DNA of 63,878 nt, the filler included, from Collodictyon triciliatum (Eukaryota), in assembly GCA_043381765.1 (NCBI GenBank). It is 19 parts of 19 records of this genome, joined end to end, with 100 filler letters (N's around TTAATTAATTAA, not from the genome) between each part and the next. Parts side by side here need not be neighbours in the genome. Positions count along the whole stretch, not along the records: positions 12,741 to 15,944 come from JBHJMP010007658.1; positions 16,045 to 19,238 come from JBHJMP010007659.1; 17 more parts are not named here. The stretch is one strand, 5' to 3'. This document shows positions 3,918 through 61,677 of this stretch, piece by piece. The notes beneath the pieces were generated by a model. The model was not told the DNA's origin. It did not search any database and was given only the letters and a program-made list of their open reading frames with translations. A program made the translations under genes and the position numbers. Position 1 is the stretch's first letter. The number at the start of each line of letters is the position of its first letter.

Positions 3918-6360
3918 GAATCTATGACACAGTGTGTGTATAATTAATAACCTTGGCTTCGGAAATGGATTTACATCCTAAATTTGATCGAATTGGGATA
4001 AGCTGTTGATGCATATTGCTTTGGAGAAGAAGAAAAAATAGCACTGAAAGGGAGAGCAAATATAGTCTATAGTATACCTTTGAGGATTGCGGATTAGTGG
4101 AAGAGTCGACGAAAGTTGTAAACATTTCACGTATTGCTTTGATAGACTCTGTTGGTAAATTGGAGAGGGAGTTTTTCTCGACAGGAAACTACAATTCATA
4201 AAGATAACATTCAAAAAAATTAAATGCTTTTTTTTTCAAATTTGAAAGGGAGGAAAACGATGATTGATTCTTGTGTTCGTTGGTTTCATTCCACGTAAGC
4301 CATAGTTGCTGAAGGTTATTTGTGACATGAGTAAACCTTGGGCTCCTGTGGATTTTCTTTTCTTTGAACATTACCGTAAAACCTCTGGTTGACAACGTTT
4401 TTTTTTATTATTATTTTTATTAATTATATTAAAAATGAATAAAAAAAATGCGGTATTTGATGAATCAAAATTAAATAGCTTAATTATCATGATTAAAATC
4501 ATATATTGCGAATATTGCAATATTAGCTCTTCTTCTAAAAAAACATTTTCTGTTCTGAATGTGTAATGCAGACAAACCGAGAGATAAACCCATGAATCGA
4601 TCAACCGCGTGTCATGCTTGCATTTGCGGGACGAAAGATAGCAGTTGAAATTCAAGTATTCTTTATCCACTTTCCTAATCAAAAGAAATTGACCATTATA
4701 ATTTGGAATGGAATATGAATTAATCATATCTCTACAGGTGTTTAAAATAGATTAGATGAACTTCGAATTAAATAGAGATAAACAATTGAGTTGGACGGAA
4801 GAAAAAACTATCATCATTTTAAGAGAAACCTCCATAATGTTTGTTGCGAGTTTTCATCCTCATTTTTAAACTCTGATACGTCTGCTTCTCTTTTTGATTC
4901 TCTTTTTCTGGGAATGTTGTGATGCTCCTAAAAAAAAATAGATAAAAATACAGTTAAGACAAAAAAAAGAAAATAAATAGGAATATTCTTTTTAACAAAT
5001 CCGATAAATGTACCTTTCTGTACTTCGAAAATATTGAATCAAAGTCCTTTGGATGCGGAGGAATAGTCTGGTAAAGATTGGACTTAATTTAATAATTATG
5101 ATATGTAAGGATATTATCTCAGGTAATTTGGTGAAAATACAGAGCATTCAATCATTCCGCCATCGCAACCAACAAAAGCGCCATAAAAAAAAATACGTCT
5201 ATTGTTGAGCAGACATAGGTCCATCTTGCATATGCCTCCTGGTACTCTATACACAGCATATATGAAAATTTATATTCACTTCTGGATGTGAATGCAACAA
5301 GCTTTTGAAAAAGCTCGTTTTAGCGGATGATATATAAATCAGTTAGATATTATATTACAGATGCCATCAGCAGTAGCAGTGTCAATGAACTTCCCTAATA
5401 ATCATAGGTATAATAGTAAAAAAAAAAAAACCTTGAAATGTGGAAAAGAAGGCTGGATCAGGCTCTTCTGGAATCAACTGGGTTTCCCAACTAGATTGCT
5501 TTTGATCGCATTTGGATTCAAGCTGTTCGCTGTCTTCCATAATTGCGTGACTGTTTACACATATTGGTAGATTTACTCACCGTTACTTAATTTTATCGAT
5601 GAAAATTAAGAGATCGAATATCAAAGTAGTAGACAGAGGTTTTTTTTTCTTATTGGTTACGGACGCAAAAAGAACGCGGTAAGATTATACTTCCAATAAT
5701 ATGGTGATGCGATGGTTATACCTAACAGCCATATTTTCCTCAGTGTGACTGACCAAGTCCTCTTTTTCCTACATGATTTCAATAGAACAGTTTCAGATTC
5801 TCATTTGAACAAAACGCTAGAAGGATGAAACAAAAGGCATGGCAATTATACTGATAATTATAATAAAGAATAAAATCATGGATGTTAGAGAATGTCTTCA
5901 TCTCGGAAATACGGTATAGATAAAATGGGGACAGCTTCTACAGATTCCTTCTCATCAGGATATATGGAAATACCAATGAAAAAAAGGATATGAAACATAC
6001 ATATCTCAAAGTATTTCAGCGAATCTACCAACCATTGCCCTTGAAGTAGACTTGTGATAAAATCGGCCGACAACATTCGGAAGATGAACCTTCTCCGTGT
6101 AGCGCGTCATCTCTTCCTTCCAATTGAGTAGTGCCTGCTCGTAATCTGCATAAGTCATAAAAGTATCTGGAGTCGGAAAATCAGGCAAAGCTTGCTTCAT
6201 TTGCTGGAATGGTAGAGTAGCGTCTCCGACAAGTCTATGGAAATGCTTATCGTAAACAGCTCCATTATGTCCCACAAAGTAGTGTGGATTCGGGTCTTCG
6301 TTAAGGATCGATATTGTCTGCGGAGTCAAGGAGGGCAGATTCACGACATAGCCGATTGAG
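3300..6360 (-). CDS. Multi-exon fragment resembling the Sca1-complex scaffold ScaA
   Basis: Exonic segments EDPNPHYFVGHNGAVYD, FPTPDTFMTYADYEQALLNWK, QLIPEEPDPAFFSTFQ and TIPPHPKDF recall the repeated PDP..F..YE.AL..W motifs of amoebozoan ScaA-like proteins. This is recalled, not searched, and exon bounds are approximate. Confidence 0.45.
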
Positions 6361-6764
6361 CCTAAAGAAACAAAAGAACGATTGATTTTCTTTATTCGTT
6401 ATGTATGTATGTATGTATGTATGTATGTATGTATGTATGTATGTATGTATGTATGTATGTATGTATGTATGTATGTATGTATGTATGTATGTATGTNNNN
6501 NNNNNNNNNNNNNNNNNNNNNNNNNNNNNNNNNNNNNNNNTTAATTAATTAANNNNNNNNNNNNNNNNNNNNNNNNNNNNNNNNNNNNNNNNNNNNAGAA
6601 AAGAAGAAAAGAAGAAAAGAAGAAAAGAAGAAAAGAAGAAAAGAAGAAAAGAAGAAAAGAAGAAAAGAAGAAAAGAAGAAAAGAAGAAAAGAAAAGAAAA
6701 AGAAAGAAAGAAAAGAAAAGGGAGTGGGCAGGTGTACCAAATGCATATTTTGTGATGGAACAGA

Positions 6765-12446: not shown

Positions 12447-13006
12447 TCTGTATGATTTTATTTTTTAATATTGTTCTATGAAAATTAGAATTGAACTCCG
12501 CTTATCAAATCCAAATAAAAAGCTAGCATAAAAAAATAGGGTAAAAAAAGAGAATAAAAAAGAGAATAAAAAAGAGAATAAAAAAGAGAATAAAAAAGAG
12601 AATAAAAAAGAGAATAAAAAAGAGAATAAAAAAGAGAATANNNNNNNNNNNNNNNNNNNNNNNNNNNNNNNNNNNNNNNNNNNNTTAATTAATTAANNNN
12701 NNNNNNNNNNNNNNNNNNNNNNNNNNNNNNNNNNNNNNNNAAAAAAAAAAACAAAAAAACAAAAAAACAAAAAAACAAAAAAACAAAAAAACAAAAAAAC
12801 AAAAAAACAAAAAAACAAAAAGACTTTGTGTGTTTGTTTGCCACAATGCGCACATTTTGAGGGCCTTGGTAGATGCTTAATTTTACATAAATTGATTTTA
12901 TGCAGTTGTTTTTATTAAATCGACCAATTGACTAATTGACTAAAGTTTTACTAAAATTGAAAACTCGGTGGTTTTCTAAAGGAAAAAGTAAAACAAAGAC
13001 TTTCAG

Positions 13007-13221
13007 ATGAAGAAAAGAAAACGTCTTGAGTTTGAGAATCTTAAGTCTGTAAAACCAGACTATCGAAATGTGAAAACATCTCTAAAGTCGATTGTAAAGA
13101 ATCCGGATGACTATTACAAAATCAACGTTACGGTTTTATTGTGTCATAATTTGGTTACCGACACTTACCTGTTTGCGAGATGTTACATATTGAAATCACA
13201 ACTCCCAACAATCGATGAAAT

Positions 13222-13296
<75 letters not shown>

Positions 13297-13516
13297 CCAG
13301 AAATGAGTATGACATGGTGACTTTTTATCTCAATGATTTTCGATTCCTTTTGTCCCGAGAAGAACGCTCTCAGTTGGTTGGACTGTCTCATGTATTACCG
13401 TACTTGGCGAAGCAAATGTTAACAGCTTATCATAACAACATTAAGGAGCATTTTGTAAAGAGGTTACTGCGCTTTATAAATCAAACGGTTCCTAAAGATG
13501 AGAATATTACGGAAGC

Positions 13517-13549
<33 letters not shown>

Positions 13550-15014
13550 AAAAAAAAAAAAAAAAAAAAAAAATAAAAAAAAAAAAAAAAAAGGCAGAGT
13601 CACGAAAATTAAAAAAGCTATCTTCAAGAATCTCGAAATACCGGAACAATATAAAGAATGGGCTAAAACGCATTTGCATGAATCATTCCCAGCGATATTG
13701 TAAATGGTATCGAATATGACTCGAAGTCAATCCAAATAAGTACATTCCATGTCTGATTTACATGAATCCCATTTTTTTGAAGACATTGGAACCAAACCGT
13801 TTCAACCAATCCCTTTAAGAACTAATTATGTACTATGTCATATTACTCTAGATACGGCTTGTTTGATAGGTCTATTAGTATCAACTAGAAAAACGTTTTT
13901 TACTGAATATATCAGGATGCAAAAGACACTATGGGATAAGTTCTTTGAAATGAAGAGGAGGGTCTTTCATCAAACAGACTACAATTTATATACATGATAC
14001 AAACAGACGGCTTGGCGGTGTCATTATCATTTGAAAAGAAAGGTATTTCAAATCCAAAGTCCAAATATAATAAAAAAACCAAGAATATGTTTATATAGAT
14101 GAACTTTCCGAAGAGCAGTTATCTTTATTAGCGAAAAAAATATATAGTTGGAGGGACACATGCAAGTTCAATTTGGTTTACATGGTGGATGAGGCAGGTA
14201 AGGAATTACGTTACATGGCACACCAAAAAAGACATGATAGCAAATCTCTTAAAAATCGAAATAAACTCTTGCACGAGAAAGAAAAGTCGTTGCTTCAGGG
14301 ACATGCATGGCAACAGGTCTACAAAGTGCTGTTTCTTTTGGTCATATGGCTTTTGAAGAGAATCAGCAGTTTGAGACATCAAGAGCATCTTTAATCGATT
14401 TAGACATAATTGAGTAAACATAATTCATGCACGGTCGATTATGAAAAAATTCTCGAGATTATGTATCTATGAAATCAAGATACCAGATAAAATTATCCAG
14501 ATTTTATGAACACGTAACTTTTCGAAAGATGAGATGGAGACATTATGTTAATACAAAAAGAAGTGAACAGTTGTTTATGAACCGAATCGAAAAGACATTT
14601 GGCAAGGATGTTGTACTGACGTAAGGAGACTGGAGCAGAAAATGTCAGATGAAATATTTTATGCCAACAATCGGAAGAGGATTACGAAAAACACTATCCA
14701 AACGTTTTGAACCAGTTAGTGTAGATGAATTAAAAACCTCCAAGATGTGTTGCAACTGCGAAAAAGAACTGGAATATATGAAACTGAAAGGAAATTCAAA
14801 AGAAGCGTATAAATGTCTCATATGTAAAGAATGCAATCGCTCAGAAAGCAAACAAAGTATATTCTTGACAAGGGACTTTAACAGCGCCAATAATATACTC
14901 AAGAAAGTTCCTCCAATCCTTCAAAAAATGCATACACGTTCCTCTAAAAAACAGGCTGTCGGGTCTTTCCTGGCAGCCTTCACCACTACACAATCTTTGG
15001 GAAAAAAGTGGTGA
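13007..15014 (+). pseudogene. Fanzor (eukaryotic TnpB-like RNA-guided endonuclease), Fanzor1-like, disrupted by stops, frameshifts and homopolymer tracts
   Basis: Colinear fragments: YRNVKTSLKSIVK, NNIKEHFVKRLLRFIN, FQPIPLRT..ITLDTACL, IQTDG (about 13997), degenerate RuvC-I IVG..D(TC)KFNLVYMVD (about 14144-14190), *GDWSRKCQMKYFMPTIGRGLR, RuvC-II VDELKTSK, zinc finger CCNC...CKEC, RuvC-III RDFNSANNI. Confidence 0.88.
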
Positions 15015-15075
15015 GACCTTGGATACTAGCGCACCAAGTTTACCAATTGAAAGATTGGTATACTTCTAGTATATT
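14953..15075 (+). ncRNA. Candidate Fanzor omegaRNA scaffold overlapping the 3' end of the ORF
   Basis: Successive stems: 14953-14963/14969-14979 (11 bp, 2 G-U); TCACCACT 14980-14987/AGTGGTGA 15007-15014; CTTGG 15018-15022/CCAAG 15034-15038; TACCAATT-GAAA-GATTGGTA 15041-15060; ATACTAG 15023-15029/CTAGTAT 15066-15072. The position matches known TnpB/Fanzor omegaRNAs. Confidence 0.65.
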
Positions 15076-17676
15076 ATTATTTCAGATCCAAAATAAATCA
15101 ATTATATGGTTGTATGTATACATATAAAGTAAATTCCACAAATATCATACACACAGCAGGAAAACTTGCGTTTCTGGTTTTTGGGAATTACGCTTAGGAA
15201 ACCATGTTCTGAATCTGCTTGCGATGGCGCTTCTTTTTATACCCATATTTTTTGAATATCTGAGTGTATGAATCGTATGTGTTGTGATATATGTAATAGC
15301 AGCGTCTGTTCCATTTTATTCACGTCCTGCTGCAGCTTCCAGTCGAAAGAAACCCAGAAGACAGAAATCAAGACAATATCGTTCTAAGATATTCCACACA
15401 GTTTACGCCCATCGATATCCTCAAGTATTTTTTTCGTGACAATTCTGTGGAAGTAACTAGGCAATGGCTGGTATTTATTCATATATACAACTGCAGTTAA
15501 GCCCAAAAGTTGACAAACAACACGCTACTTAAGCCAAGCAATCGGCCATACAGACAACTATCGATGTGTTCTGATCAAGCCACGTTTCACATTTCGAGGG
15601 TGTGTATGACCTTTGTGACGCACTCGTCTACGCGTTGAACTTCTTTTTTGCACAGCACAAGATTTGAATCAACCAAAGTGAATGAAGACTTTGATAGATG
15701 AGCCTAACCATAGAGAAATTAAAATGAGCCGGTGGTCACCATTTCGCTGAAACTGCAATAACACATATTAGTATATGTTCATATATTATATTTTTTTTTT
15801 GAAAAAAAAGAAGACACAACTTGGAATGCCCCTCTTATTGTCACTAAAATAAAATAAAATAAAATAAAATAAAATAAAATAAAATAAAATAAAATAAAAT
15901 AAAATAAAATAAAATAAAATAAAATAAAATAAAATAAAATAAAANNNNNNNNNNNNNNNNNNNNNNNNNNNNNNNNNNNNNNNNNNNNTTAATTAATTAA
16001 NNNNNNNNNNNNNNNNNNNNNNNNNNNNNNNNNNNNNNNNNNNNTTTTTTTGGTTTTGGTTTTGGTTTTGGTCAGAAATATTTTGAAGCTCTTTTATGAA
16101 GAAAAAAAAAGTACGATTCGGATTCCACGGCAATAAGAACTGAGACGTGAAAGAGAAAGGAAGTAAGAGCGAAAAAAGATAACGAGGCAGAGAGAGAAGA
16201 GAGAAAGAAGGAAAGAGAAGAGAGAAGAGAGAAAGAAGGAAAGAGGGGTGATGAGGAAGAAGACGACGAAAACGAAAACGAAAAAGAAAAGAAAAGAAGG
16301 AAGGCCGCAAGTAAGCTCTACGCTGTGATCCCCACCATCTCTTCCACCCACTTCGCTAGTGAATCGGCCCCATCCAAGTATGTGAATTGCCGCAACAAAC
16401 GCCACAGCCTGCGAGGGCCGAAACACACCCTTGGACAAATCCGCCGAGAGAGCCCGTCGGAGGCAGCAGAAGAGCTCGGCAGCAGAACAAAGGAAAAGAT
16501 ACCGACAGGCAACCAAGAGGCAATCTTTACATCAGAGGTGTTGCGGTGATGAGCAGCATTGAATCACTCCAGCCATGTGATTGCAACTTTGATTTGCAAG
16601 CAGAGGGACAATCACCCAACGATGAATAATTAGGCGATTTTTTTTTTTTTATTCTTCCTTTCAACTTTTGTGCAGGACCGAGGGGTGAATAATTAGGCGA
16701 TGAACTATGGAACCTGTTGAAATGTATCTTTATACTGATGGGAATGAAAAGAAGAGGGGCGATGGAGAAAATGCATATAAAAATGGGCGTAGCAAGTGAG
16801 TAGATTAAATAAAACAAGATATGCAAGTAGTGTCATCGCTTTTATTCACACTGGATGGATTACCCCCAATTTAAATTCAAAACAGAATAAAGTGTGGTTT
16901 AAAGTTTTGACGGTGGATTGTGCTGCAAAATTCTTGGAGTAGGTGTAATATTCCTTAAGACACAGAAACAAGGTGGTATTCACATCTATATGACATTTTT
17001 GATTCGTGTGCGATGATACACGCATATTTTAGGATCGCGTGATTGATATGGAATTTGGGTGATACAAACAAATGTGACAACATCTGAACCGTATGAACTT
17101 CAGTTAGCATGAATAGGAATCGCAGCAGACTCAAATGAAAGGACTTTCAATCATTTGGGTTGGAAAAACACGGCTAAAATCTTGAAAAAATTGCTATATA
17201 CTCGAAAAGAAACCGTCATCATAGGCTGAAATACGAATAAACATAAATGAAACAGTAATTCAGAATAGCTAAAAAAAGGAACAGATTGTTTCCACCGTAA
17301 TAAAAGAACGTCAACCGAAGATGCTCCACTATTTAAATAAATTTTTGTTGGAGCTAATAATATATTCGAGTAATCGGTTTGTTTACTTTTGGCAGAAGAA
17401 AACTCGTATTTAAGGCCAAAAGAATTGTACCAGTGGAAGAAAAATATGCCGAGACAGATTGATAAATATTATGTTATGTCAAAACACGAAGAAACAAATT
17501 GGGTGGTGAAAATCATACTTTTGTTTGCAAATCGTCGATTTTATCTTCGTTTGATTATTGCGTGTGGAAGAAACCACCAATACTACTTGCTTGATTCTGG
17601 CGAAGGACGTGGTTTAGTTCCCGCTTTATTTAGAGACCAAGTTCTTGCCTGGCTGTTGACTTTTTCTGTGTTTAAG

Positions 17677-18278: not shown

Positions 18279-19037
18279 ATGCATGCCATCCTTGCCAGAA
18301 GTCCGGTTGATCTATTCCGTCGGGCCATACCTTTCACACGACAGCTTTCTGCCTCGTAAGCCAGCCCTTGATTTCTCTGCTACACGAAAATGAAAATGAA
18401 AATGAAAATGAAAATGAAAATGAAAATGAAAATGAAAATGGAATAAAACAATATCAAAGGGCTGCCCTCAGCCAGTCCGAGAAACTACTGAAGAAGCTCT
18501 CCGACTCGCAGCCCTTCTTTGTGGTGGCCGGCCCATGCGCCATCGAGTCAGAGGCCATGCTGACCAAAGTGGCCCAGCACCTCTCGGCCGTCTCAGCAGA
18601 GCTGCAAATTGCAGTTGTTCTGAAAGGTAGCTTCGACAAGGCCAATCGAACCGACGGACAAAGCAGCCGTGGCCTGGGTCTCAGCGACGGACTCGACATT
18701 CTTTACCGCGTTGGTCTTCAACACGGCCTTCCGACTCTGACCGATGTCCATGAAGTCCACCAAATCCCGGCCGTGGCTCGTGCTGTGGACATCATCCAGA
18801 TTCCTGCCTTTTTGTGCAGGCAAACAGACCTCATCACCCAGGCCGCAGCCTCTGGGCGCATTATCAACATCAAAAAGGGCCAGTTTGCTTCGCCGCATCA
18901 CATGCATCGGGCGGCTGAGAAGGCGCTGCGTGCGAACGGTGCTGCGTCCAAGACTTTTCTCACAGAGCGCGGCACTTTCTTTGGATACGGCGACTTGGTG
19001 GTCGATGCCCGCAATCTGGTGCGCATGCGCGGCAAAG
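18279..19037 (+). CDS. kdsA: KDO-8-phosphate synthase (2-dehydro-3-deoxyphosphooctonate aldolase), 5' part
   Basis: Exon 1 is 18279-18355. The intron 18356-18459 (GTAAG...AAG, containing a GAAAAT repeat) joins in frame to exon 2, 18460-19037. Motifs: VVAGPCAIES, KGSFDKANRT, LTDVHE, IQIPAFLCRQTDL, NIKKGQF, ERGTFFGYGDLVVD. Confidence 0.93.
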
Positions 19038-22000
19038 GTGATGGTGCCTTGATTGACTTGCTCTCATAGATGGCTCGTCGATTTTATGTCTTGGTTCCTG
19101 CTCCTGCTGTTCTGTTGACTTCCTCTCCATTTATTGGCTACTTTTTTGTTTTTTGTTTTTTTTTTTGTTTTTGTTTTTTTGTTTTTATTTTTTTGTTTTT
19201 ATTTTTTTTGTTTTTATTTTTTTTTTTTTTTTTTTTTTNNNNNNNNNNNNNNNNNNNNNNNNNNNNNNNNNNNNNNNNNNNNTTAATTAATTAANNNNNN
19301 NNNNNNNNNNNNNNNNNNNNNNNNNNNNNNNNNNNNNNTGGAGTTAGATGTGGAGAAAGGTATGGTACTTAGGCGAGCTAGGAGGTTTGGGGGATTGAGA
19401 GATTGTATTCTATGTATTTTATCTTTTTTTTTTTTTTTTTGTGGAGGAAGGGCATATAGAGAGTAGGGTATGTGGTGTATAGGTAGTTGGGGTGTTATTT
19501 TATGGAGAAAGATCACTACTGAAGACGGACACAAGACGGCACATAGGACGACAGAGAGGATGACTAGCGAAGAGTGTAGCAGATCGAAGCAGGTAATGAA
19601 GTGAAGAAAGAAAGCAAGAAACACGGGTACATGACATGGAAGGTAGACAAAAAAAAAAATAGGATGGAAAGCAAATATATGGTAATCGATGTAGATTGAT
19701 GGTAACGTGTGTAGTTTGATGCGGATAGAGTAGAAATGAGAAACTATCAGAATTATGCTAATAAATGCGAATAGATGTGAACTGGTAGGAAATAGCACGC
19801 ATACATCTGGGCAATAATGCGCAAGACAATTAACAGAATATGAATAAAAAAAAAATTAAAATTGCAGGAAATATATTAATAGTATGGCATTACATAATTT
19901 ATGGGAGATACTGATTTTTATTTTCATGTTACTTTTGTTGCATCTAGAATGTTAATTTTTTTTTTTTTTGGTGTTTAAGCGTATAAGGTAGATTCTATTA
20001 ATTCGGATCGGAAGGAGGTTAATTACAACGGCGCTGATATATTTTTAGTGAATAGTTTGCCTCAAGAACTGTAATGCTAATGAATGTGTAGAATTTTATA
20101 TGTCAATAGAAATACTAGACTTGTGTGATTTGTTCTTTTTATATTATTTGTGATAAATTAATCATCATGCAAAATTGTTATAATTCAAAAATCTGGCCGT
20201 GAATAAAGTTGGGGTCTGAGTTATTGGTTGTTGTAGCTTTGTATGTGATGAGATTATTATTGACACCTGTTTAGTGAATAGAAGGGAATCCTTAATTCAG
20301 TTCCTGTTTTGATCTGACGTGTTGCCAAATCCGACTCGTGTCACTTCCACATAACGAAGGCACAACTGTGTTGTTGGACTGTAGAAGAAAGGTAATTTAC
20401 CAAAGTATAAACCCCCATCATATTGCACAAATAGTATGTAATAATTTAAAAAAGAAAAGGTAATTCAAAGGCAACTTTGTTAAAACTAAATAAAGTACGA
20501 ATTGCTTATGCACATGTTATTTATTAAGATATATCGAACGTTTGGGCGGTGTAGGTGCGCTAAATATAAGGATGCGCTTACGAGAAATTAACAAAACAAA
20601 AAGGTATATTTTCATGTAAGTTTTATGTTCAACTTTATTTAACAAGTGCATTTATTATCACTACCATTATTATTTCTTTGATTTACGTGTATCAACAATA
20701 CCATCAATGCGTGAATGTTTTGATACCTCTCTTATAAAGAACGCACTTGGGCTGTCCTATTACTGTTGGCTAATGTAGACCGCGATTACGCTTGCAGTAT
20801 GCAGTGGCTTATTGATATCTCAAAATCTTATTTTGTATCAGTTGTGAATGACTAATTAAATAGAATCGAATAGTTGAATAAATCACGTGTCTCATTATAT
20901 TTTTGTGACGATATGAATATAATACATATAACAGTGTATTTATGGTTTGTGAAATATATTTATTTGTAAAATTCATGCTAAGCATTCGATTATGTTAAAA
21001 TATCCAATATAATGAAAGTGAATATCTAATTTTTGTGCCTGAAGAATGATTTATATTGCTTTATCTACTACGTATTGACCTTAGTGATTGACGGCCTACA
21101 GGAAAATGATAAAGGGCAAGTTTTACTAGAAAGAAAATGTTCATGAAGTCTTGTTTATTGAACCTGTGTTATATTTGATATATTTGTTGATTTTTAAATG
21201 GTTGAGTTCGATTATCTGGTAAATAAAATTTTTGAAGCATTTGAGCGATGAGTTTTTTTTTCCTTTAATGACGACAGCACGATTTAAAATAGTTTTCGAA
21301 TATCCTTGGACACAAGTTAAGCATATGAGCAGCTTACAAACATGCATATAATACTTCCGAGAGTTTTGCTTCATATAGCGTCAGGTCGATAGTTAATGGT
21401 GTATACATACGCAGTGTAGATAAAATTTTGGTGAATTTTTTATTGCAATATTTGGCCCATATATGTGCATGCTTGAGCGGGTATGACTTGATAGTATTAT
21501 GATGGCAAGGTAATATCTTATTGCTATAACAGTGGGTATTTTATGTTATGTTGAGGATATCATGTAATGATTTTTTGAGTCTATTAAAATTTTCTATTTT
21601 TATGTGTTTTTTACAGGAAGACATACTTTAGTATTTTTGTCTTGCTATATCTTTCGATTTATTTGTGTTTCACTATATCATTATTCGATCAATTACTGAT
21701 GATTATAAAGTTAAATACAACTTATTTTGATAAACATATCTTTTTAGTCTAGAGTCAGTTTTTTTTTCTACTGACCATAATCTAATCCACATATCCAAAC
21801 ATAACGAATATGCATCGATACTTAAATGACGACGGACATGATGAGACTATAAGAAATTATTGTAATCGCCTGAGGCATCAAAATAGTCTCACCTAAGTCG
21901 ACGATATTGAATGTGAGAATGGAAGTCATGTACAGTGCTTCTTGAAAATACCAAAGTATTTGGTGAAGACACACTCACCCCAGGTTACCTATTCCTGTTT

Positions 22001-55510: not shown

Positions 55511-58500
55511 ACCCAGACGTTTGTGTCGATGTTCCTTCCGTTCATGAAGCCAATCTGCTCTTTGGATATGAGTTTGTCAGCGATGGGTGATATGCGATTT
55601 CTGAGTAGCGTCGTAAATATCTTGTAGTCATTATTCAACAGCGATATTGGTCGCCAGTCTGCAAGATTGCTTGAGTTTCCTTTCTTTGGTATCAGCCGCA
55701 CCGTGGCCTCTGTAAATCCTTGCGGTAGGTCGTCGTCAGACATGATTCCATTCAGAAAAGTCACCGAGATGCCTTGACCTCATTAAAGAAAGCAGAGTAT
55801 ATTCCGTTGGGCAGCCTATCTGGACTGGTGCCTTTCCGTTGTGCAGCGACTTGGCCGCTTTCCACAATTCGCTTGCATCTATCGGCGCTATCATGCTGGC
55901 TGCTTGCGAGAGCGAAGCCTTGGAGCAGTTTGTAGTGATAAACTCGAGAGTAGCAGCATCATAGTCTTGCCTTGACCACATCTTTGAGAAGAAGTCGTGG
56001 GTGTTCTTTTTGTTGTTGCGAGGTAATAAACGTTGCGAGTCCACAGTGGTGTGCAGGACGGATACATGGCCTTTTCTTTTTCCTTTCCTAGTCCAAAGAA
56101 CCATTTCTCCATCTACTCAAAGTCTAGCAAGTATCTCGCTTCCCATTTTTCACGCTATTTGTGAATATCCGATGTTAGCTGCTCGGCAAGTTTATCCTCC
56201 AAGCTCGCCAGTTTTTCTTTTTGGGTGCGTTTCCACCCCGATGGTCTATCTACTGCTTTCATCAGAGCCTCTTTCTCCCTTTCAAGCTTCTTCCGCTCCT
56301 CTCCATCCTTATTTTTGAACCAGCTCGATTTTTGGATAAGAAGTATAGAAAGCTGTTTTTTTAATACAGGCCATTCCGCCTCGATGGGCGCATCACCTTG
56401 GGTCTTGAAGTGAGCCCTGAGCTTGTTTTGTATGTCTTCTATCGACTTGGAGTTGTTGTATGCCCTCCAGTCTATATACCTCGCCTGCTTTTCACAGCCA
56501 CCGGCTGAATCGATGTGAGCCAGGATAGTACTGTGGTCAGACAGCGCAGAATATAACGTTCTTAGTTTCTTGAACCACGCATGCAAGTCCCTTGAGCAGA
56601 GGAAGCGGTCGATTCTGCTCCACGTGAAGCCGCTATTTGTATGTCTTCTACACGTTGCACCTAGAGAGTGAGGATTGAGCGTCTTCCAAGGGTCTTGCAG
56701 CTTGTGCCTGATTGTCCAGTCGACGAAAGATTTGTTATTGCGTGTCGAGAACCCAGACCACTCGGTGCTGGCATCAATAAGAGCGTTGAAGCCTCCACAG
56801 ATGATGATATGTTTCGCAGACTCCATCTCCTTAGAGATAAGCTCATAGTCGTGTCTTCTAGTATTTAAATCTGCAATTTGGAGCGACATGTATGTTGTCA
56901 TCATACGAGTGTCAGCTCCATCGATTTATGTATCAATACTTGCACAGCGGCTAGGAGTAATCTCCCTGAAGCGAGGATTGAGTTTGACTATCCATTTCTT
57001 GCATAAAAACGCTACACCTGCATGTCTCTGTTGATTATCGTCACAGGACCACATTTGTAGACCTTTCCATATTTCATCATCGGTTAGATTGCTTGGGCTA
57101 AGCACTGTTTCTTGGAGATAGATGATGTCTGCATGCGTGATAAGAGCAGTGATTAGAGCCTCTTTTCTTTTTTGGCCGTTAGTCCCCTGAAGTTCCACGA
57201 CAGAACGTTAAAACACATGAGTAGTCTATTGACTTTCGGAGGCCGTAGCCTCCAGTGATTGGCCCTCTCTGCTGGAGCTGGGTTGCTCAGAGTGGGAGGT
57301 TTACTCGAGTTATCCTTCATTTGGCCGGTGTTATAATTGCTCGCGGTTCGGCCAGATTTTGTTGGACGGTTTTGGGCTTTGGGGTGCAATCCTTTTGTAG
57401 CTGGTGTGTTGGGAGATGCACATTAGTTGGCTCTTAGGAACCATGGATTCTACTTATTATCCCTTGTTGTCCGTGTGATGGGCAGGTCTAACCATGTTTT
57501 CACATCCATTCTGATTTGCTTTCTGGTTCGCTATATTCATTGGCGTATTTGACTGATACACTCCCTTTTCATCAGGTGAGTTTTTATCTTTGTGTTGTTT
57601 CATTATCTCGCAGTGCACTTGTAATGACTGATTGGACAAGAGGTATTTTAGCCTCATCACAGCTTATTGTTCATTTTTGAAGATTTTGGAGCGTTCTTGA
57701 AAATCTGAGATGTAGAGACTACTTTCACAGTCAGGATGTCCTCATAAACAGTGCTTGAGAAGCCATTTGTCGTTTCTGAAGCTTCGAGCCGCTCGCTGTC
57801 TTCTTCAGCAGAACCTTCTAGGAGGGTGACAGGCTGGATGGACTGTTCTTCTTGCATTGCAGAGTCTGGGACGCCGCTTGTTATGGATTGCACAGCATTT
57901 GCTGAAGAAGGAATCTCTTCAATCGACTCAGGAGCCATGTCATCTAAGGTGGTTGGTGGGTGTGGTTTGCTGGTTACCATAATGCTGACTCCCGATTTTG
58001 TTGCCGAGTTGGACTGGGCTTCCCTTTCCTCGATATCATCTTCACAATCCGGTGGTGAGTTTGGTGAGATATCCTCAGTCTGAGGGGATTGGTAATCTTT
58101 GAGGTTGACAAAGTTTTCACCGCTTCTTCGAAAAATTGATTTCAATACAGACACTGCCTCCTCCGTGTTGATTGGCGAACTTGATGAAGCACTTTCAGAC
58201 AAATTGCCTAAGTATTCATCCATTTTTTTCCATATCCATTACTTGATTTTGGGCCCGTCCCTGAAGCTTTTCCTTGATTGAGACTCTGAGCACTTCATCC
58301 AAGAGTGTCTTGTCACGATTTCTCCCTCTGTCGTTAGAAGGCGAAATGCCTTGCTTTTAGCCTTGTTGTTGGACTCAAAGTTAGTTTTGGTAGCGCAATT
58401 AGTGATTACTTTCCCAGTCTTCAGCGTTATAGTCAGCTACTTTTGTGTTGGAGCCCGAGAAGCGAGTGGTGGCGTTTTGTTTGTTAATGTTCACTTGTTT

Positions 58501-59083: not shown

Positions 59084-59356
59084 GTCATGAGAGGTCAACG
59101 ATATGACGAAAAAGCAGATGTTTACAGCTTTGGAGTCATTCTGTGGGAAATCGAAACAAGGGCAATTCCTTACGAAGGGAAAGATTCGTTAATGTTGCAA
59201 TTCGAAGTCTTGAACGGATTACGACCAAGCATTCGAAGCGGGATGAACAAAAACATTGCCGAACTGATGCAAAGCTGTTGGCATACAAATCCTGATATGC
59301 GCCCTCGATTTCAGAACATCAGAATAGAAGAAGCTAGCGCTGCTTGGGAAAGCTAG
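59084..59356 (+). CDS. Protein kinase (TKL-like), terminal exon with subdomains IX-XI
   Basis: Motifs: YDEKADVYSFGVILWEI, GLRP, LMQSCWHTNPDMRPRF. AG acceptor at 59082-59083. Confidence 0.9.
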   Translation, partial: VMRGQRYDEKADVYSFGVILWEIETRAIPYEGKDSLMLQFEVLNGLRPSIRSGMNKNIAELMQSCWHTNPDMRPRFQNIRIEEASAAWES

Positions 59357-60229: not shown

Positions 60230-61677
60230 TCACGATTGTGGCTGTGGCTGTGGCTGTGGCCGTGGCTGTGGCTGTGGCCGTGGTTGTTGCGCAGGCGCTG
60301 CTTCTGCGAGAGCAGGCGGGGGGCGGGTTCGGGACGGAGCGGGCGGAGGCGTGCAGCGGCGTCAGAGTGGGCGGGAGGGCAGCGGGGGAGGAGCCGGACC
60401 TTTGGGCCGAGGCGCAGAACGGGACGGAGGCGGAGGCGGAGGCGGAGTTTGGCGGGGTGGCGGGGCGAGCAGGGCGGGCGGGGCGGGCGGGGCGGCTGGT
60501 GCACCACATTGCGGGCGACGAGCCGCTGGCCGGGACGCTGCTGGGGCTGCTGTCCTCGCACCTGCTTGCCACGGCCTGTGCCCGCACCCTGCACGTGGCC
60601 GACGACGCGGGGCGCCTGCACGCCTTGTTTCCGCACCTGCCGCGCCTGCCGCCGGGGGAGTCTGGTGGGGGCGACGGGGCGGCCGCGCAGCACATCCACG
60701 TGCACCGCGCAGACGCCGCGGCATTTGCGCGCATGGCCGCAGAGGCAGAGGCAGAGGCAGAGGCAGAGGCCCACAGCCACAACCACAGCCACAACCACAG
60801 CCACAGCCACAGCCACATCCACATCCACATGGACACAGACGCCTCCGCCGCCGGGCTGGACCCCCTGCTGCGCCTGCTGTCGCCGCCGCACCGCGCCCTG
60901 CTGCACTCGCCCGCCCGCACGCTGCACATCCACGCCGCGCAGCCCTTTGCCGCCCCCGTGCTCGCCGCCCTCTTTGGCGCGCACCCGCCGTGCCTGCGCC
61001 TGTGCGACGGATGGTACCGGGCGGCGGCGCGGCGGCTGCTGCGGCCCAGTGCGGAGCTGACAGCCCTTGCCCGCCGCGTCGCTCCTCCGCGGGATGCCGC
61101 CCCCGTGGCCGTCCTCGTGCTGCCCGACCGTCTCGACGCCCGCACCCACCCCCACACCCACGCCGACCAGGCCTGCGCCCGCACCCGCGCCTCCCACGCA
61201 CAGACCCTGCTGCTGCTCTCGTCCGACGATCCCGCCCCCTTCCTGCCCGTCCCCGTCCCCGTCCCCAACCACAGCCACAACCACACACACGCGCACGTCT
61301 CCCTCCCCCCGACACGCACCGCCATCGCCGCAGACCTGCGCCGCCGCGTCCAGGGCGCCCTCCCCGCCGCCCGCCCCGCCGACCTTGTCGAGTGGCTCCA
61401 GATCTCCGCCGCAACCGCCCCGCCGACCGTCCCCGAAGTCCTCTGCTCCGTCGTCATCGGGGCAAACGCCGGCCCCCGCCAGGAGATGCTCCCCGCCCTC
61501 CTCCGCGCCCTCGCCCACCCCCGCACCCTCCTGCGCGGCTCGCACTACGGCCACTGCTTCCAGTTCCCCACCCGCCACCCAACCACCCCTGCGATGATCG
61601 CCCTCCTCCACAAGATTCACTCCGGTGGCGCAGACGACGCCCCCATCCCGCCCAGCCTCCCGCTCTATCTCGGCTGA
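60230..61677 (+). CDS. Very GC-rich hypothetical protein, 3' part
   Basis: Long frame to TGA 61677 with strong GC at third codon positions and in-frame VA/AE/HS microsatellite expansions. No family recognised. Confidence 0.5.

Follow-up and report, generated by a model that had tools for sequence, protein, structure and literature searches.

What remains at the end of a transposon whose RNA-guided nuclease gene is broken? The closest described systems are those of Fanzor, whose omegaRNA is reported to be transcribed from the transposon end (PMC10432273). According to the same account, the SpuFz1 scaffold, of 75 nucleotides (nt), extends across the inverted repeat on the right, with a variable guide of 14-15 nt after it, and the GtFz1 omegaRNA overlaps 17 C-terminal codons. 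The Fz1 omegaRNAs are described as 75-150 nt long with 2-4 stem-loops, the first of 7 base pairs (bp) (PMC11423790), and the RNAs termed fRNAs in a further study are said to adjoin the right end of the element, with conservation that extends into the open reading frame (ORF) (PMC10530073). As to the carriers, Fanzor1 is reported from Helitron, Mariner and other transposons (PMC3627910), and in Chlamydomonas from within Helitron2 elements (PMC10530073); Helitron1 is described as beginning with 5'-TC and terminating in CTRR-3', and as having a single subterminal hairpin on the 3' side (PMC3627910). Here, we describe the 3' end of a Fanzor1 gene in a stretch of 63,878 nt from the Collodictyon triciliatum assembly GCA_043381765.1, referred to below as the window. 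Our analysis leads us to consider the block at 14953-15070 as probably the omegaRNA scaffold of the window's Fanzor1 family, located beside a broken nuclease gene; it would finish at CTAG/T and take its guide from the flank.

Like the solved Fanzor1 omegaRNAs (GtFz1, 150 nt; SpuFz1, 90 nt; PpFz1, 75 nt; PMC10432273, PMC11423790), this block has several stem-loops, is placed at the 3' end of a nuclease gene and ends at the right end of its transposon, and it thereby has the layout of an omegaRNA. Its overlap with the end of the ORF, already part of the original prediction for this locus, comprises the last ~20 Fanzor1 codons, compared with the 17 of GtFz1 (PMC10432273), and the block extends 58 nt beyond the stop. 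In its details the locus departs from the known examples: the first stem-loop of each of the three solved RNAs has 7 bp (PMC11423790), whereas it is of 11 bp (the first hairpin, hp1) or 8 bp (the second, hp2) in the window; and SpuFz1 has 30-nt inverted repeats, whereas none were found for the window element. In the solved omegaRNAs the guide comes from the flank, and we assume the same for the window block.

By analogy with these systems, the block would give rise to a processed transcript that the nuclease binds. In working copies, its DNA would be transcribed together with the nuclease gene or after it, and trimming would leave an omegaRNA. The scaffold of this omegaRNA would measure ~120 nt and consist of three stem-loops, two of them (hp1 and hp2) in the last ~20 codons and the third, the long bulged stem, past the stop. 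The last bases of the element (CTAG/T) would form the scaffold end, and the guide would be the ~15-20 nt of flank that follow, steering the nuclease to sites with the same flank. The copy in the window may itself be inert.

Fold of the block at the Fanzor1 3' end

Two hairpins on the + strand lie within the end of the coding sequence. The first, hp1 (14953-14979), has 11 bp including two G-U pairs, folds at -19.2 kcal/mol and falls within the last codons (KQAVGSFLAAF); the second, hp2 (14980-14987/15007-15014, spanning 14980-15014), has 8 perfect bp and a 19-nt loop at -9.4 kcal/mol, and the TGA stop at 15012-15014 is part of its 3' arm. Past the stop follows the long bulged stem (15023-15072, + strand, -15.9 kcal/mol), in which a 7-bp outer helix (ATACTAG, 15023-15029, complementary to CTAGTAT, 15066-15072) and a CGCACC bulge lead to an extension of AAGT (15036-15039) with ACTT (15062-15065) and to a core hairpin (hp3; 15041-15060, + strand) of 8 bp, whose GAAA loop is closed by a U-G pair. 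Also present is an alternative stem of CTTGG (15018-15022) with CCAAG (15034-15038). All of these stems had been listed in the original prediction, and each was found at its position. That prediction had further proposed either a pseudoknot or one long bulged stem, and it is the latter that our folds favor: the nested long stem reaches -17.0 kcal/mol against -11.7 for CTTGG/CCAAG combined with the core hairpin, about 5 better even before a pseudoknot penalty, and the CTTGG/CCAAG pairs have an ensemble probability of 0.0, which makes a pseudoknot unnecessary.

Over 14945-15080, the + strand has a minimum free energy (MFE) of -47.2 kcal/mol, compared with a mean of -27.5 +/- 3.3 for dinucleotide shuffles (z -6.01), and thus beats 200/200 of the shuffled controls that had been suggested for it, none being as good; the - strand reaches -36.8 (z -3.11, 1/200 shuffles as good). 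This signal is carried by hp1 and the long stem at 15023-15072. Taken alone on the + strand, hp1 has a z of -5.85, the long stem of -4.35 and its part 15036-15065 of -5.63, with none of 200 shuffles as good in any of the three, while hp1 on the - strand has a z of -2.96. Pair probabilities are 0.67-1.0 in hp1 and 0.91-1.0 in the outer helix and core hairpin of the long stem. We also scanned the window in 3364 N-free segments of 136 nt on both strands, with MFE regressed on composition. The exact candidate block scores z -3.97, above all 3364; the nearest grid segment, 14927-15062 on the + strand, has rank 12, which is the fairer figure because the frame of the candidate was chosen. In searches for known RNAs, no Rfam family matched 12700-15900 with an E of 1 or less, and ARAGORN found no transfer RNA or transfer-messenger RNA genes in 14500-15500.

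The broken Fanzor1 gene and its distant relatives

Upstream of the block, and overlapping it, lies a decayed full-length Fanzor1 gene (13007-15014, + strand) in at least four reading frames. In tblastn with P0002, an intact protein of 648 residues, residues 1-643 are matched in five pieces on 13007-14993. An in-frame TAA interrupts the gene at 14622-14624, where all other copies aligned there read TAT (14624 = T); at 13224-13296, ~57 T followed by 15 A stand in place of ~20 codons of the gene relative to P0002, and at 13521-13592 a 72-nt A-rich run enlarges a lysine-rich patch. These homopolymer runs could reflect either the genuine expansion of microsatellites in a pseudogene or a fault of the assembly, and some of the breaks in the gene could be assembly errors, as the contig is small and unplaced and has such odd runs.

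The assignment of this ORF to Fanzor, made originally by inspection, can be narrowed to Fanzor1. The C-terminal 181 residues of the window copy (P0001) are 66% identical to P0002, which in turn matches the solved Fanzor1 chains of GtFz1 (9cer, 2e-28), PpFz1 (9cf0, 3e-24) and SpuFz1 (8gkh, 4e-23), GtFz1 being its nearest solved relative; the similarity to characterised nucleases spans the whole length and identifies the ORF as a Fanzor1. A C-terminal query has 1657 matches in the representative library, and the protein collection searched contains only three members of the window's Fanzor1 family. The Fanzor motif is described as D-X(125,275)-[TS][TS]-X-X-C4 zinc finger-X(5,50)-RD (PMC3627910). 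Its C-terminal part is intact in the window translation as TS-KM-CCNC...CLIC...(15 residues)...RD; its first Asp falls within a frameshifted stretch of the window copy and is present in P0002 (VGVDPGK). The Pfam TNB match is weak (E 0.0078, below the family cut-off), and no transposase domain, RepHel included, was found in the 3.2-kb contig.

How far does the genomic context of the gene extend? The window consists of small contigs chained in size order by six-frame-stop linkers of 100 nt (44 N + TTAATTAATTAA + 44 N), which recur about every 3.29 kb with a spacing that falls from 3304 to 3284. Two of them, at 12641-12740 and 15945-16044, enclose the contig with the element; the true genomic context of the block is therefore 12741-15944 only, and genes of different segments are not neighbours. 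The linkers are often bordered by microsatellites.

A wider view is given by 52 distant Fanzor1 loci (L001-L052), found with alignment A2 on aquatic metagenome contigs, some of them 170-250 kb long. Their proteins are 38-62% identical to P0002, and blastn detects no DNA similarity between them and 14900-15110. At least 31 of the 52 carry a strongly conserved 3' block ending in ...GGCGTTTTAAATGTTCAAAGGTGTAA(A), i.e. GGTGTAA(A), which lies 15-283 nt after the stop (just before it in L039); the distance from stop to end is commonly 28-93 nt, and 58 nt in the window. Right after the conserved block, seven near-identical copies of the L013 type have seven different flanks. Of 30 loci examined, 9 have an inverted copy of their last 20 nt at a distance of 2.0-3.3 kb upstream (17-20 matches out of 20), and those relatives therefore have terminal inverted repeats, as does SpuFz1.

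RNAalifold on MAFFT alignments of these relatives returned no structure, and their structure was set by hand from single-sequence folds (examples of the RNA are L003:3378-3503 and L013:2007-2090). Across 14 distinct sequences, 79.6% of cells pair, compared with 35-49% when the partners are slid, and the covariation score is 0.224 against 0.144 for shuffled data (0/500 as high), with 8 of 29 pairs changed on both sides; the closing helix TTTTAC/GTAAA hardly varies (a single wobble change, three breaks), so that the data speak neither for it nor against it. At least 31 of the 52 relatives carry a conserved, covariation-supported RNA at the same position, followed by a variable flank. Where this RNA overlaps the ORF, they have a conserved peptide tail, ...KVGQSVDF.... 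The order of parts is the same in the relatives and in the window, with a first hairpin in the last codons, a second one at the stop or beyond it, then a long bulged stem, the end and a variable flank. The sequence, however, is different, and whereas terminal inverted repeats are seen in the 9 relatives, the window end at CTAG/T is without an inverted partner found. The window block is a separate sequence family that resembles the RNA of the relatives by position and architecture.

The right end of the element

Where does the element end? To its right, the boundary can be read from copies in four public runs, two freshwater metagenomes and two small organism runs, whose contigs were aligned at a likeness of at least 80%, with depth counted per contig. 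The 511 contig pieces (22+113+172+204 in the four runs) fall on 14000-15070 and none beyond, so that in each of the four runs the depth is above 0 as far as 15070 and drops to 0 at 15071; the likeness of these copies ranges from under 90% to over 99%. Three loose-end contigs run past this point, and all three read ...CTAGT and then diverge from the window and from each other. The sharp drop in similarity that had been forecast near 15072 is thus observed, and the right end of the element is at CTAG/T, 15069-15070. CTAGT (15066-15070, + strand) represents the last letters common to all four copies seen, each of which then continues into variable sequence, four ends in total and three of them 30-nt loose ends. 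The flank at 15071-15090 (+ strand) is the candidate guide, by analogy with the known layout (PMC10432273).

The other copies also bear on the fold. Relative to the window, three of them have 3 extra bases between GGTA and CTAG; because of these, the AAGT/ACTT extension may be specific to the window copy, and so may part of the 7-bp outer helix. In one other copy, whose loose end is at 15047, the core hairpin retains 7 bp but in a different register and with another loop, the top pair being lost and a bottom pair gained. Among the 40 of 374 copy differences that were listed, two fall in 14953-15072 (14994 and 15000), both in the loop of hp2, which is no more than a hint that, as originally proposed, the stems have kept better than the ORF. 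Opposite the 5' arm of hp1, the tail of P0002 differs from the window by L->S and A->T, and the three changed bases that are fixed by the codons still pair (G-U, G-C, U-A). On our reading of the two sequences, the P0002 tail would be compatible with hp1, a small independent hint with a chance expectation of ~1 in 8.

Three joints in the two organism runs (X4 and X5) lead from 14710, 14711 and 14757 to 14946 or 14955, skipping 188-244 nt. The stretch skipped encodes the zinc finger and the last catalytic motif, and the 3' block is retained. The contigs concerned may stem from deletion derivatives of the element, with the reservation that low-likeness joints of such kind can be spurious.

Searches for further copies were made at several scales. 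Inside the window, blastn of 14940-15075 matches only itself and tblastn of P0002 only 13007-14993; the phage collection gave no match, and P0002 found no close relatives in JGI metagenomes and IMG/VR. A pattern of the core hairpin plus CTAGT has 45 viral and at least 120 prokaryote-genome matches, none of which was extended by blastn (E up to 0.01), and these are attributed to chance. As for a left end, no inverted copy of the right end was found upstream in the contig, the best candidate matching at 13/20, which is chance level; a 9-nt inverted match at 12890/15095 lies outside the family boundary and is likewise at chance level. Upstream of the Fanzor1 ATG there is one A|TC site, without anything that marks it as the left end of the element. 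Beside this site, ~85 nt upstream of the ATG, ACCAATTGA occurs at 12920-12939 and again, as a direct repeat, at 15042-15050, where it belongs to the core hairpin, as part of its 5' arm and loop.

Guide RNA, transposon end or relic

What, then, is the most plausible role of the block? The right end of the broken Fanzor1 gene is where active relatives encode their guide RNA, and the most likely view of the locus is therefore that of an unremarkable copy, perhaps no longer active, of an element of known type. Precedents for guide-RNA regions without an adjacent intact nuclease are the ghost Spu-1 elements, reported at 134 loci (PMC10432273), in which such regions persist without an intact nuclease, and 20 further fRNA copies in Chlamydomonas (PMC10530073); unlike in these, the nuclease gene of the window is still present but broken.

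A number of observations weigh against an omegaRNA scaffold. The nuclease gene beside the block is broken and sits on a small, unplaced contig. A covariance model of the relatives' RNA (R1, 14 members), run with filters off over the whole window, has no match at 14950-15075, its best hit being elsewhere at E 1.7, and therefore gives no sign of homology between the block and a supported omegaRNA. The comparison within the window's own family is limited to four right ends, three being 30-nt loose ends; between these copies a 3-nt indel falls in the lower part of the long stem, and the last 2-3 pairs of the outer helix rely on bases at or past the shared end of the family. Taken alone, hp2 is weak (z -1.95, 8/200 shuffles as good). 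Finally, the + strand is equally unusual when folded as single-stranded DNA (z -5.57), and the fold and its G-U/G-T pairs therefore point to the + strand, not to RNA over single-stranded DNA. Of the original argument that G-U pairs and a GNRA loop are signs of RNA structure on the + strand, the strand bias holds, and the distinction between RNA and single-stranded DNA does not.

This last point also counts in favor of an explanation at the level of DNA, in which the terminal hairpin and CTAG would be a transposon signal, either a Helitron1-type 3' terminus before T or a Tc1/mariner-type end by TA, serving a transposase on single-stranded DNA. In all four copies (the window and the three loose ends) the core hairpin is followed 5 nt on by CTAG and then by T, and three of the four read CTAG|TA; the failure to find an inverted partner of the right end in the contig also fits such a terminus. 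Fanzor1 has been reported inside both Helitrons and Mariners, and the Helitron1 3' terminus is described as CTRR-3' with a hairpin (PMC3627910), to which the window offers a counterpart in the subterminal hairpin at 15041-15060, CTAG (15066-15069) in the position of CTRR and T at 15070. Unlike in Helitron1, this hairpin is AT-rich, two more hairpins lie upstream in the coding sequence, and no RepHel was found in the contig, nor was any other transposase. CTAG is moreover a palindrome in AT-rich DNA, seen at four ends only; the left end has not been located, which leaves 5'-TC and an A|T target without support; and hp1 and hp2 sit 55-120 nt from the end in coding sequence, where a terminal signal leaves both unexplained. 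We regard a DNA signal as unlikely to be the primary role of this end, although the idea is to be taken seriously, and such a signal may coexist with an omegaRNA, since OMEGA scaffolds are built on the transposon end. One specific form of such coexistence would be an omegaRNA built on the 3' terminus of a Helitron1-like carrier, with the Helitron hairpin as its terminal stem-loop, a scaffold that ends with CTAG and a guide that starts at the T of an A|T target; this we consider a long shot.

A further explanation takes the block as a 3' feature of the messenger RNA, acting in stability, termination or translation, or as a relic without an RNA-guided role, the hairpins of which are kept by the youth of the copies. 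The copies in the public runs are 80-99% alike, shared ancestry alone can keep stems at such likeness, and within the window family no compensatory change was demonstrated directly. Against it, the structure stops exactly at the element boundary; no other part of the 64-kb window is as structured as the block; and related Fanzor1 at ~40% protein identity retain a covarying RNA in the same place, which together render this explanation rather improbable. As for mere chance complementarity in AT-rich sequence, the 8/200 shuffles that match hp2 and a frame picked after the stems were seen speak for it, but with 0/200 shuffles reaching the energy of the whole block, or that of hp1 or the long stem, and with an unchosen grid segment at rank 12 of 3364, it can practically be set aside.

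Elsewhere in the window, other contigs carry eukaryotic gene fragments (380-718, 18311-19066, 49905-51041, 56158-56925 and 59084-59353), which comprise a myotubularin-like phosphatase, a DAHP synthetase I family protein, NHL repeats, a LINE-type endonuclease and a protein kinase. After correction for composition, the fold scores that rank next in the window are those of 60453-61132, where G+C reaches 75-79% and GGCTGTGG-like units are repeated, and a high fold score is also seen at 6359-6494, in an (ATGT)n microsatellite.

If confirmed, an omegaRNA scaffold at 14953-15070 would add one more Fanzor1 family, with a ~120-nt scaffold of three stem-loops and a sharp right end, and with the intact P0002 as a possible partner. 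The biology would be that already described for Fanzor/OMEGA, and the value of the finding lies mainly in the annotation and in the pointer to a multi-copy family. The end formed by the hairpin, CTAG and T raises the small question of which transposon carries the window's Fanzor1 lineage. Should it be a Helitron1-like element on whose terminus the omegaRNA is built, an RNA-guided nuclease would be coupled to the recognition of a Helitron end, and the carrier would differ from that in the known link between Helitron2 and Fanzor1 in Chlamydomonas.

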